A DNA stretch of 64,000 bases from Burkholderiales bacterium UBA1834 (GTDB taxonomy: Bacteria; Pseudomonadota; Gammaproteobacteria; Burkholderiales; Burkholderiaceae_C), in assembly GCA_002339015.1 (NCBI GenBank), contig DDJC01000002.1:94645-158644 (forward strand), given 5' to 3'. Under the pieces are notes generated by a model that saw only the letters and a program-made list of their open reading frames with translations, was not told the DNA's origin and did no database searches. This document shows, one piece after another, positions 743-4,080 of this stretch; the stretch's first letter is position 1, and each line of letters opens with the position of its first letter. The position numbers and the translations under genes were made by a program.

Positions 743-3388
743 TCAGGCCGCCTTCTTGGCCGCGGCTTTTTTGGCCGCCGTCTTGGCAGGCGCCTTGGCC
801 GCGCGCGGCTCGAACTCGAAGCCCACCTTGCCCGCCTTGGCATCCCAGCTCAGGAAGGCCTTGAACTTGCGGCGCGTCTTGTTCGACACGAAGCCATCGA
901 GCAGGTCGGTCTTGCCGGTGGCCAGCAGCTTGGTCATCTGCTCGGGCGCGATCGGCTGCTGCAGAATGATCTTGCCGCTCTTGAAGTTGCAGCTGCCCTG
1001 GCCCACGGCGTTTTCGCAGACGTAGTTGGCGCCGTACTCGAAGACCTTGCCGCCGCACTTCAGGCAGGTACCCAGCGAGGTCTGGTCGCTGAAGTCGACG
1101 GCCTCGCCGGATTCTTCATCCTTCTTGGCGTCTTCGCCGAAGTCGAACTCCATCTTCCAGTTGTTTGCTTCGTCATCTCGCACCAGGCGCAGCTCGGCCG
1201 TGAAGGGCCAGCCCGCCTTGGAGCGGAAGCCCTCCAGTGGGCCCACCTTGTGCTCGCGCAGCAGCTGCTCCACCTCGGGCAGCTCGAAACTGCGGCCAGC
1301 CGGGATCTTGGTCATCGAGAAACCGCAGCCCGTGCCTTCGTCGGCACCGCCGTGGTGGCCGGTGCAGGTGAAGCGGCGGTAGTTCTCCTTGACCACGCCG
1401 CCGCAGTTGGGGCACGGCGTGCTCAGGGTGGCGTAATCACCGGGGATGGTGTCACGGTCGTATTCCTTGGCCTTTTGCACCACGCGCTGCGTCATCGCGG
1501 CGATCTCGGCCATGAAGGCCTCGCGGCTGAGCTGGCCCTTTTCCATCTCCGAGAGCTTGTACTCCCAGTTGCCGGTCAGCTCGGGCTTGGTCAGGTCTTC
1601 CACGCCCAGGCCGCGCAGCAGCGTCATCAGCTGGAAGGCCTTGGCCGTGGGGATCAGCTCGCGGCCCTCACGGTACATGTACTTCTCGAGGATCAGGCCT
1701 TCGATGATGGCCGCGCGCGTGGCTGGCGTGCCCAGGCCCTTCTCCTGCATGGCCGCCTTGAGCTCTTCGTCGTCCACCAGCTTGCCGGCGCCTTCCATGG
1801 CGCTCAGCAGCGTGGCTTCGGAGTATCGGGCAGGCGGCTTGGTCTTGAGCGCGCTGACCGTGATGTCCTCATTGAGCACCTGCTCGCCCGGCTGCACGGC
1901 CACCAGGTTGGTGTCGCCGTCCTCGCCCTGGGCTTCCTTGCCGTACACCGCCATCCAGCCCGGCTTGACCAGCACCTTGCCATTGGTCTGGAAGTGATGC
2001 TCGGTGCCATTGACAGGCACCTTGGTGATGCGGGTGGTGACCATGAACTCGGCCGAGGGGTAGAACACCGCCAGGAAGCGCTTGACGACCATGTCATACA
2101 GCTTGGCCTCGGCCTCGGTCAGGCTGCTGGGCGCCTGCAGCGTGGGGATGATGGCGAAGTGATCCGACACCTTGGCGTTGTCGAACACGCGCTTGGTGGG
2201 CTTGATGTAGCCCTCCTTGAGCGCCTTGGCCGCGTGCGGGCCCAGCTCGCGCAGCGGGCCGGGCAGGTGGCCTTCAGCGATCATGCCGACCGTCTGCTGC
2301 ACCACGCCCAAATAATCTTCAGGCAGCGCGCGCGAATCGGTCCGCGGGTACGTCAGGGCCTTGTGTTTTTCATACAGGGCCTGGGCCAGGCCCAGCGTGG
2401 TCTTGGCGGAAAAGCCGAAGCGCGAGTTGGCCTCGCGCTGCAGCGTCGTCAGGTCGTACAGCAGCGGGCTGGCCTGCGTGCTGGGCTTGGCTTCTTCCGT
2501 GACGGTACCGGCCTTGTTGCGCACCGCATCGGCGATGGCCTGGGCCTCGGCCTCGCTCCAGACGCGATCGGCCTTGAACTCGGCTTCGGCCGAGCCTTCG
2601 GGCGCGCTCTTGTCCTTCTTGAAGTTCGGGTTGAACCACTTGCCGTCGTAGCTGCCGGCATCGGCGCCGAACGTACCCTTGATCTCCCAGTAATCACGGA
2701 AGATGTGCTTGCGGATCTTCTCTTCGCGCTCGACCACGATGGACAGCGTCGGTGTCTGCACGCGGCCCACGGTGGTCAGGAAGAAGCCGCCATCGCGCGA
2801 GTTGAAGGCCGTCATCGCGCGCGTGCCATTGATGCCCACCAGCCAGTCGGCCTCGGAGCGGCAGCGCGCCGCATCGGCCAGGGGCAGCATCTGCTCGTCG
2901 CTGCGCAGCCTGTCGAAGCCTTCGCGGATGGCCTGCGGCGTCATGCTCTGCAGCCACAGGCGCTTGACCGTCTTGCCCAGGCCCTTGGCGCGCGTGGTGG
3001 CCGTGCTGTCCTGCGCGTACTGCGCGATCAGGCGGAAGATCAGCTCACCCTCGCGGCCCGCGTCACAGGCGTTGATCAGCGTGTCCACGTCCTTGCGCTT
3101 GATCAGCTTGACCAGGGCGTTGAGCCGGCCCTTGCTCTTGTCGATCGGATTGAGATCGAAGTGCGGCGGGATCACGGGCAGGTGCGTGAAGCTCCACTTG
3201 CCGCGTTTGACGTCGAACTCCTCCGGGGCCTTGATCTCGACCAGGTGGCCCACGGCGGAGCTCACCACGTAGTGCTCGCTTTCGAAGTATTCGTCGTGCT
3301 TCTCGAACTTGCCGTCCACCGGGGTCAGCGCACGGACGATGTCCTGCGCAACGGATGGTTTCTCGGCGATGACCAGGGCTTTGCTCAT
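743..3388 (-). CDS. topB: DNA topoisomerase III (type IA)
   Basis: TOPRIM start [35 protein letters not shown], active-site [16 protein letters not shown], Cys-rich C-terminal repeats. Start reset to ATG 3388 because the ORF-track extension crosses the alternating tract. Confidence 0.95.
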
Positions 3389-3459
3389 GGGCGTGTTTAT
3401 AGCGTCTATGCCGGCCTCCGCATGGCCGGTGGGAAATACGTTCTTACAATCAGGGCTCT

Positions 3460-3520
3460 CGCGCATGCGTGTGTGCATGTATACGCGTACGTACACATGC
3501 GCACACACGCACACGCGCGC
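3460..3520. repeat. 61-bp perfectly alternating pyrimidine-purine tract (potential Z-DNA/cruciform)
   Basis: cgcgcatgcgtgtgtgcatgtatacgcgtacgtacacatgcgcacacacgcacacgcgcgc: every position alternates Y/R. It also contains an imperfect inverted repeat (gcgtgtgtg-catgt / acatg-cg-cacacacgc). Confidence 0.95.
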
Positions 3521-3549
3521 CCACCAATTCAATGTACCCAATCTTGCCC

Positions 3550-4080
3550 ATGTCGCAAGCCACCCCGAAAAATCCGCCTGCCGCCCGGACGGCTGCCACC
3601 AGCGCCGAGGCCCCGAAAGGCAGGCGCCGCACCCAGGTGCGCGACTCCGGCGTGCACGGCAAGGGCGTCTACGCCGTGCGCCCCCTGCATGCCGGCGACA
3701 CGGTGCTGGAATACCGCGGCGAGATCATCACCTGGCAGGAGGCGCTGGACCGCCATCCGCACGATCCCAGCCAGCCCAATCACACCTTCTACTTCCATCT
3801 GGATGACGGCCATGTCATCGACGGCAAATACCAGGGCAATTCGGCCAAGTGGATCAACCACTCGTGCGCGCCCAACCTGGAGGCGGAGCAGGACGGCAAC
3901 CGCGTCTTCCTGAAAGCCCTGCGCGACATCGCTCCGGGCGAGGAGTTGTTCTTCGACTACGGGCTGGTGATCGACTCGCGCATCACGCCCAGCCTGAAGA
4001 AGGACTACGCTTGCTGGTGCGGCTCGCCCGACTGCCGGGGCACCATGCTGGCCATCCGCCGCCGCAAGAAGAAGGCCTGA
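3550..4080 (+). CDS. SET-domain protein-lysine methyltransferase
   Basis: GKGVYA, WINHSCAPN, EELFFDY and post-SET CWCGSPDCRG motifs; basic C-terminus RRRKKKA. ATG 3550 chosen, with 3532 as an alternative. Confidence 0.92.
   Translation: MSQATPKNPPAARTAATSAEAPKGRRRTQVRDSGVHGKGVYAVRPLHAGDTVLEYRGEIITWQEALDRHPHDPSQPNHTFYFHLDDGHVIDGKYQGNSAKWINHSCAPNLEAEQDGNRVFLKALRDIAPGEELFFDYGLVIDSRITPSLKKDYACWCGSPDCRGTMLAIRRRKKKA

Follow-up and report, generated by a model that had tools for sequence, protein, structure and literature searches.

Does a SET-domain protein lysine methyltransferase that is encoded head-to-head with a topoisomerase gene act on that topoisomerase, or are the two genes linked in some other way? 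The question is raised by a locus in a 64,000-nucleotide stretch of DNA from Burkholderiales bacterium UBA1834 (contig DDJC01000002.1, positions 94,645 to 158,644; the whole stretch is referred to as the window, and coordinates are those of the window). Here topB, the gene for DNA topoisomerase III (TopB), is divergent from the gene for a small SET protein (SET), which is followed by birA, the gene for biotin-protein ligase. TopB is 96% identical to TopB of a metagenome-assembled Aquabacterium genome, which identifies the source of the window as Aquabacterium. A preliminary description of the sequence had named the lysine- and alanine-rich (K/A) C-terminal tail of TopB as the obvious target of SET. 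We find that topB and SET form a housekeeping gene pair that is conserved in Aquabacterium and in its family (Comamonadaceae/Sphaerotilaceae-type Burkholderiales). We favor, with moderate confidence, an explanation in which topB carries a generic basic tail, the SET-birA operon supplies an enzyme that methylates endogenous basic proteins, and the control region shared by the two transcription units is the best physical link between them. This control region is the most unusual feature of the locus, and the pairing of SET with TopB is itself of low novelty.

Gene organization and the SET protein

topB occupies 743..3388 on the minus strand, stop codon included, and encodes 881 amino acids (aa). 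The minus-strand open reading frame (ORF) as listed spans 743-3541, and the coding sequence from the chosen methionine spans 743-3388. The product scores 1579 bits against the NCBIfam equivalog model PRK14724 (cut-off 1088), which places it in TopB, and contains the Pfam domains Topoisom_bac, Toprim and two copies of Toprim_Crpt. The SET gene lies at 3550..4080 on the plus strand and encodes 176 aa. The MSQ at 3550 is its likely start: a length of 172-178 aa is usual among database relatives, and a stop codon occurs within the upstream MYP frame of three orthologues. The start codons of topB and SET, at 3388 and 3550, are thus head-to-head across a 161 bp gap. birA (4086..4949, plus strand) begins 5 nt past the SET stop codon, and therefore SET is the first gene of a SET-birA operon. 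The ligase is of the form without the N-terminal repressor domain; Pfam BPL_LplA_LipB and BPL_C and the TIGR00121 model (125.7 bits, cut-off 83.1) were matched, and models for the bifunctional protein were matched from position 77-79 onward. A SPOR-domain gene is next.

The SET protein matches Pfam SET (PF00856) with 82.2 bits (cut-off 22.4, E 4.1e-23), and the catalytic motifs GxG, NHxC and the tyrosine of ELxxDY align with those of MLL1. Residues G37, G39, N103, H104, C106, P108, N109 and Y137 are invariant in an alignment of nine sequences that includes orthologues and paralogues, as is the post-SET CxCx4C zinc cluster (C155/C157/C162). Judged by these motifs, SET is a catalytically intact lysine methyltransferase. 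The top structural matches, among the best 60 of 138 in the PDB, are the SET domains of MLL1, ASH1L and NSD proteins (E 4e-20, residues 35-169). The protein ends in AIRRRKKKA, with the basic tail RRRKKKA encoded at 4057..4077 on the plus strand. This tail is not conserved, as most orthologues terminate in CRGTMLAPKR. On these points the preliminary description was accurate: the 21-residue K/A tail of TopB is present at the place claimed for it, and the Pfam match, invariant motifs and start codons confirm a divergent neighbor with an intact SET/post-SET domain and an RRRKKKA end.

Long K/A-rich extensions occur on some SET orthologues, at the C-terminus in L026, L040 and L041 and at the N-terminus in P0115, which suggests that the enzyme can be tethered to DNA. 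The genome also encodes a second, distant SET-domain protein (contig C76:25879-26184, locus L002) that is 30% identical to the first and scores 61 bits with Pfam, and this gene sits inside a long open frame. Two contigs of a wastewater metatranscriptome (X2) cover parts of the SET gene, at 3696-3933 (no differences) and 3904-4031 (two differences). They are a weak hint of SET transcription in situ, as carry-over of DNA may account for them, and stretches that lack coverage carry no information.

Basic TopB tails with and without SET

The tail of TopB in the window (746..808, minus strand) contains six lysines in 21 residues. For comparison, the tail was defined as the sequence past the conserved GFEF motif in every TopB with a complete 3' end. 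Basic tails of lysine, alanine and proline come after the GFEFEPR motif whether SET is adjacent, present or missing. At the 64 loci with SET adjacent and divergent, the median tail has six lysines (lysine fraction 0.24), and 59 of the tails have four or more. The corresponding values for TopB from order-level genomes without SET (n = 19) are seven lysines and a fraction of 0.23, with four or more lysines in 18. Where SET is present but unlinked (n = 10), the medians are 10.5 and 0.22, and all ten tails have at least four lysines. Five family genomes have TopB and no SET (medians 5 and 0.13); four of these tails reach four lysines, and the tail of the remaining genome (G034) is arginine-only. 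Genomes of the order-level class were at least 90% complete and had no SET match at E <= 1e-15. Of the 33 that qualified, 20 were fetched, and the twentieth (L135) has a plainly lysine-rich tail that was missed by the motif, hence n = 19. A further genome with TopB and no SET match (G137) is 55% complete and stands outside the SET-less family class of five.

Comparable tails occur in every examined class of TopB locus except one, a second family (f7) in which SET is adjacent to topB in a convergent arrangement (n = 3; median one lysine, fraction 0.04, none with four or more). Here each tail has one lysine and five to six arginines, though SET is adjacent. Conversely, long K/A tails are present on TopB of Massilia, Burkholderia and Cupriavidus. 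The 3 kb upstream of topB lack SET at the Burkholderia and Cupriavidus loci; the 340 bp available for Massilia are too little to judge.

TopB proteins of this clade have K/A tails in general, and the occurrence of the tail does not follow that of SET. A correlation between the tail and SET linkage, which the preliminary description had put forward as its own check, was sought here and there is none (lysine fraction 0.24 versus 0.23). Because the tail is independent of SET, the hypothesis that it is the target of SET loses support, though it is not disproved. Nor is TopB an obvious choice among the basic proteins of this organism, as the genome contains at least 13 ORFs with K/A-rich low-complexity segments (contigs C81, C28, C50, C118, C7 and others). 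These include HU-like (C81; K/A tail of ~45 aa), H1-like (C28), K/A-SWIB (C75) and Dps-like (basic N-terminal tail) proteins. An argininosuccinate synthase with a K/A N-terminal extension is also among them.

The tail is probably a generic basic DNA-binding appendage of this TopB clade that would raise DNA affinity, by analogy with other type IA topoisomerases. Lysine repeats at the C-terminus of Streptomyces TopA are reported to stabilize the enzyme-DNA complex and to confer processivity (PMC5714199), and a basic C-terminal region of ~33 aa is described for E. coli topoisomerase III (PMC9369019). All three are type IA enzymes whose C-terminal extension is rich in lysine and of low complexity. 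Unlike those, the tail considered here is short (21 aa) and follows two Toprim_Crpt repeats.

Variants of the tail were observed in other genera. In Hydrogenophaga-type sister genera the K/A tail of TopB is longer and runs into a C-terminal SWIB domain (10/64 loci: L075, L077, L079, L082-L084, L087, L104, L108 and L122), similar to the TopA-SWIB fusion described for chlamydiae (PMC12445093). Aquabacterium TopB has no SWIB domain, but the genome encodes elsewhere (contig C75:5091-5303) a protein of 126 aa in which a K/A-rich N-terminus precedes SWIB. The two could be a fusion/fission pair. At L038 and L039 (genomes G018 and G136) the topB frame is seemingly ~37 codons longer upstream and encodes a K/A-rich N-terminal extension (MPAAKKTAAKAP...). 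In these two family genomes the SET sequence has diverged (45-48% identity) and the gene is unlinked, and there is no alternating tract, of the type described below, upstream of topB.

The control region shared by topB and SET-birA

The gap between topB and SET contains a 61-nt perfectly alternating pyrimidine-purine tract (3460..3520, without strand) that is predicted to be Z-DNA-prone and capable of forming a hairpin or cruciform. Its length is unique in the 4,421,580 bases of the genome, where only three more tracts have 20 nt or more (maximum 23 nt). Tracts were also found at related topB-SET loci (97 loci, which are mutually related and possibly include some species twice). The median of the longest tract per intergenic region is 25 nt, with at least 15 nt in 90 loci, at least 19 nt in 79 and at least 25 nt in 51. 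Equal-length control windows taken from these loci (n = 3225) contain a tract of at least 15 nt in 16 cases and never one of 19 nt. Lengths span 13 to 61 nt, and the letters vary widely among relatives while perfect alternation is kept. Tracts of 21 and 17 nt are present in two of the five SET-less family genomes, and broken remnants occur in two others. The tract goes with topB, not with SET. No alternating tract was seen upstream of topB in other families.

We also compared substitutions, which gave 64 transitions versus no transversions in 767 tract columns and 312 versus 516 in 4571 flanking columns. This test was rejected as circular, because two perfect alternations in phase can differ only through transitions. 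Evidence free of this circularity comes from the long tracts that persist among relatives.

Hexamers resembling -10 elements flank the tract on both sides. TACAAT (3445..3450, plus strand) is oriented toward SET-birA and ends 9 nt before the tract; the same hexamer occurs 6-12 nt to the left in 60 of the 90 loci with a tract of at least 15 nt. On the right, TACATT (3531..3536, minus strand) is a putative promoter element oriented toward topB, 10 nt from the tract. TAnnnT is found on the topB strand in 68 of the 90 loci (TACATT in 50), and in 59 of the 68 it is 10-12 nt from the tract. Shuffled flanks give the left and right hexamers at 20% and 39%, respectively. A possible -35 element for topB, TTGCGA (3553..3558, minus strand), is 16 nt from TACATT and overlaps codons 2-3 of SET, and SET orthologues share a conserved ATG-nCG-CAA-GC start. 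We place the promoters by conservation, because a consensus scan of 3300-3650 called none.

From their orientation, the two putative promoters look as if they face each other, with predicted starts at about 3457 (rightward) and about 3524 (leftward), so that both 5' leaders would contain the tract. The preliminary description had assumed that topB and SET are co-regulated. The orientation of the -10-like elements points to promoters that interfere with each other rather than to simple co-regulation. This arrangement, rather than an enzyme-substrate relationship, is the best-supported physical link of topB and SET.

The step composition is 52% CG, 43% CA/TG and 5% TA, and a two-state estimate would put the flip from B- to Z-form at sigma of about -0.033 to -0.051. 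The estimated flip point would be near the superhelicity reached behind transcribing polymerases. Engineered (CG)n tracts flip in vivo behind active E. coli promoters (Rahmouni and Wells 1989, as cited in PMC13463272). The tract resembles such flipons in its perfect, CG- and CA/TG-dominated alternation and in its location, where divergent transcription accumulates negative supercoils. It differs from the engineered examples in being natural, conserved family-wide and situated in the control region of a topoisomerase gene, with the Z-form predicted. The RY box of the Halobacterium bop promoter is another promoter-proximal alternating purine-pyrimidine element. A 2026 review considers in vivo evidence for regulatory Z-DNA in bacteria to be limited. 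Among the Z-DNA papers listed (15 of 211), none concerned a topB promoter by title or abstract, and the literature searched gave no account of the tract.

An extended version of this idea is that the tract is a supercoiling-driven B-Z switch that gates the facing topB and SET-birA promoters, while SET modifies K/A-rich nucleoid proteins (among them the TopB tail, the HU-like tail and the H1-like protein). We consider this combination quite unlikely. It is possible, although doubtful, that the tract involves no switch in DNA shape and functions instead in an RNA leader or antisense overlap, as a site for a protein that recognizes CGCGCGCAC repeats, or is a compound microsatellite maintained by slippage. 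Several features weigh for such roles and against a purely structural one. The SET-sense strand is asymmetric (309 CA versus 87 TG steps; 847 C versus 136 T), which would be needless for a purely structural duplex element, and many tracts start and end with CGCGCGCAC. The tract of this genome forms a strong predicted hairpin (-26.1 kcal/mol as single-stranded DNA, z = -4.4), both messages would contain it if the -10 calls are right, and lengths vary over the range given above. Yet hairpin stability across the family is barely above that of alternation-preserving shuffles (median z = -0.66; z < -2 in 5/70 tracts), and the spacing of the terminal repeats, 3 to 21 nt, is unlike that of a fixed protein-binding site. 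No Rfam family was matched at gathering score; sub-threshold matches to mammalian CA-repeat miRNA hairpins are likely low-complexity artefacts. Finally, perfect alternation is retained although the letters differ, which also speaks against these roles.

SET is a core gene of the family

An orthologue of SET, at 55-80% identity, was identified in 142 of 151 family genomes and TopB in 145 (one genome per genus; the tallies include the unpublished genome G145). In the 30 loci fetched around the best 30 SET matches, topB is always divergent and within 900 bp. In the reverse direction, SET is upstream of topB in 68 of 80 TopB-centred loci from named public genomes, including Aquabacterium, Roseateles, Ideonella, Piscinibacter, Rubrivivax, Hydrogenophaga, Sphaerotilus and others. 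Seven of the 80 were too short or incomplete to judge, and the Massilia locus, a further one, has 340 bp upstream. No SET was found upstream in four loci with enough sequence, those of Burkholderia, Cupriavidus and two assemblies labelled Verrucomicrobia. In the five SET-less family genomes topB is directly divergent to birA, so the arrangement does not require SET, and the adjacency may be equally well described as topB-birA synteny with SET in between.

The distribution and synteny of SET support a core, vertically inherited locus rather than an effector island. The genome (96% complete) contains no type III secretin above cut-off (the search for an injection system covered the type III secretin, TIGR02516; best score 133 bits versus 238). 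Because SET is core and co-linear with birA, and no such secretin is present above cut-off, it is reasonable to seek its target inside the cell, and an endogenous role for SET is plausible. In this free-living bacterium the substrates of SET are most likely one or several basic proteins of the cell itself, with the TopB tail as one of the K/A-rich candidates; the comparative data do not favor it over the others. Thus, the part of the preliminary description that proposed a core locus and an endogenous substrate is consistent with the distribution of SET, whereas its choice of the TopB tail is not borne out.

There are precedents for such a role. SET proteins reported to act on the organism's own basic DNA-binding proteins include cpnSET of Chlamydia (Hc1/Hc2) and Go1-SET of Methanosarcina (MC1-alpha) (PMC3980110, PMC7819608). 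They provide a model for an endogenous function, for which only candidates can be named here: the K/A tails of TopB and of the HU-like, H1-like and SWIB proteins.

SET beside topoisomerase genes in the order

In an order-level sample of 121 genomes (unpublished genome G173 included), tallied by hand, both genes are present in 21 genomes, SET only in seven, TopB only in 33 and neither in 60. Where both occur, they are adjacent in six genomes, 4.5-17 kb apart in four and unlinked in eleven. SET is directly beside a topoisomerase gene in seven of the 28 SET-positive genomes, in three arrangements. In the first (f1), SET is divergent to topB. In f7 (L143-L145), dnaN-gyrB-SET is convergent with topB-dprA, so that SET is between two topoisomerase genes; SET follows gyrB after 34 nt in two of the three genomes, and the third contig ends early. 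In G235 (L150), SET is 41 nt after gyrB. No gyrB is near the window, and the gyrB of this genome is on other contigs. Outside of these three arrangements SET has no consistent neighbor and is found beside unrelated housekeeping genes, among them those for GlnRS, SerRS, rpoD, ilvD, PHB depolymerase, an OYE-type reductase, DUF1499/DUF493 proteins and bioB. That SET recurs beside topoisomerase genes is a modest indication that they are linked by function or by chromosomal position, and is no evidence about the tail.

Alternative explanations for SET

In an explanation that follows the preliminary description, lysines of the TopB K/A tail, or other TopB sites, would be methylated by SET to tune DNA binding, and the shared control region would couple the two genes. 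SET enzymes act on lysines within basic, disordered tails, and the idea draws on the conservation of the head-to-head adjacency across the family, on the second, convergent adjacency in all three f7 genomes, and on the location of SET 4.5-17 kb from topB in G169, G259, G217 and G235. The chlamydial and archaeal SET proteins that methylate DNA-binding proteins also fit. Other observations count against the housekeeping explanation that we prefer. The consensus scan of the control region found neither a sigma-70-type promoter nor a terminator. Tails that occur in SET-less genomes could nonetheless be methylated in genomes that have the enzyme; the tail comparison thus removes support and is no disproof. 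SET seems to adjoin topoisomerase genes more often than chance would give, in genomes that are related to one another, and this hints at a genuine connection with DNA topology. In addition, the K/A tails on some SET orthologues would suit an enzyme that is itself bound to DNA and could encounter TopB there. Still, modification of TopB appears unlikely to us: its tail does not co-vary with SET, f7 tails beside SET offer a single lysine among their arginines, the two genes are unlinked in 11 of the 21 order-level genomes that have both, topB persists in the five SET-less family genomes (with lysine-rich tails in four), and many other K/A-rich proteins are possible substrates.

Two further explanations take SET away from the nucleoid. 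SET could be an exported, host-directed effector that methylates eukaryotic histones, with RRRKKKA as a nuclear or nucleolar signal. Like BtSET of Burkholderia thailandensis/pseudomallei, which is also from Burkholderiales, and LegAS4/RomA of Legionella, it is a small bacterial SET lysine methyltransferase with resemblance to eukaryotic H3K4-type SET domains, and its top matches among the best 60 of 138 in the PDB are H3K4/H3K36 methyltransferases. BtSET is described as small, delivered by type III secretion and active on H3K4 (PMC3980110, PMC7819608, PMC10117894). The comparison with BtSET was made by description and through the single homologue of a Burkholderia-type genome (G183), which is 66% identical to SET. 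In the accounts cited, BtSET and LegAS4 are secreted effectors that act on host histone H3, whereas SET is a core gene in a birA operon; it occurs in 142 of 151 genera, whose members mostly live free in water and soil, and keeps its place beside birA and topB. The LegAS4/AnkI family model (NF043024) gives 35.6 bits versus a cut-off of 550, and Pfam finds the SET domain only, without ankyrin repeats. The lack of a type III secretin above cut-off, the poorly conserved basic tail, the housekeeping neighbors of SET elsewhere in the order and the absence of secretion genes among 42 flanking ORFs scanned also make an effector role very improbable. The other explanation is that SET methylates a small molecule or a non-nucleoid protein, and that its position beside birA or bioB reflects a metabolic role. 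BurB, a SET enzyme reported to S-methylate methionine, is an example of a bacterial SET domain that works on a small molecule (PMC12542666), and SET shares an operon with birA here and is flanked by bioB in G217. However, SET has a post-SET zinc cluster and is most similar to protein lysine methyltransferases; BurB, for which crystal structures are reported, is absent among the best 60 of 138 PDB matches, and the birA linkage is limited to this family. We judge this explanation extremely improbable.

Other features of the window

A 597-aa subtilisin-like ORF with S8-type motifs is encoded at 5828-7621 on the minus strand. Its end has a Gly-rich stretch, a hydrophobic segment and RRRAH, and resembles a C-terminal sorting signal. 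Both observations are from the translation.

Implications

By title and abstract, we found no relevant paper that links a bacterial topoisomerase III with a SET domain, and none on this gene pair among those on SET-domain lysine methylation and nucleoid-associated proteins. A 2022 review describes the effects of protein modifications on bacterial DNA processes as an open question (PMC10117894). The TopB tail is not an obvious target of SET, and the K/A tails of the HU-like, H1-like and SWIB proteins stand alongside it. As a natural element found family-wide, the topB control region is a candidate for a Z-DNA/supercoiling switch at a topoisomerase gene. If the tract is a B-Z switch, the amounts of the topoisomerase and of a chromatin-style modifier would both be set by DNA topology, so that the state of the nucleoid would feed back on itself, and the location of SET beside gyrB or topB in other families would be a footprint of this topology link. 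Bacterial SET enzymes are mostly discussed as weapons directed at host chromatin. Because a BtSET-like SET is a core, syntenic gene of a large family of free-living bacteria, its presence argues that the original job of this type of SET lies within the bacterium itself.

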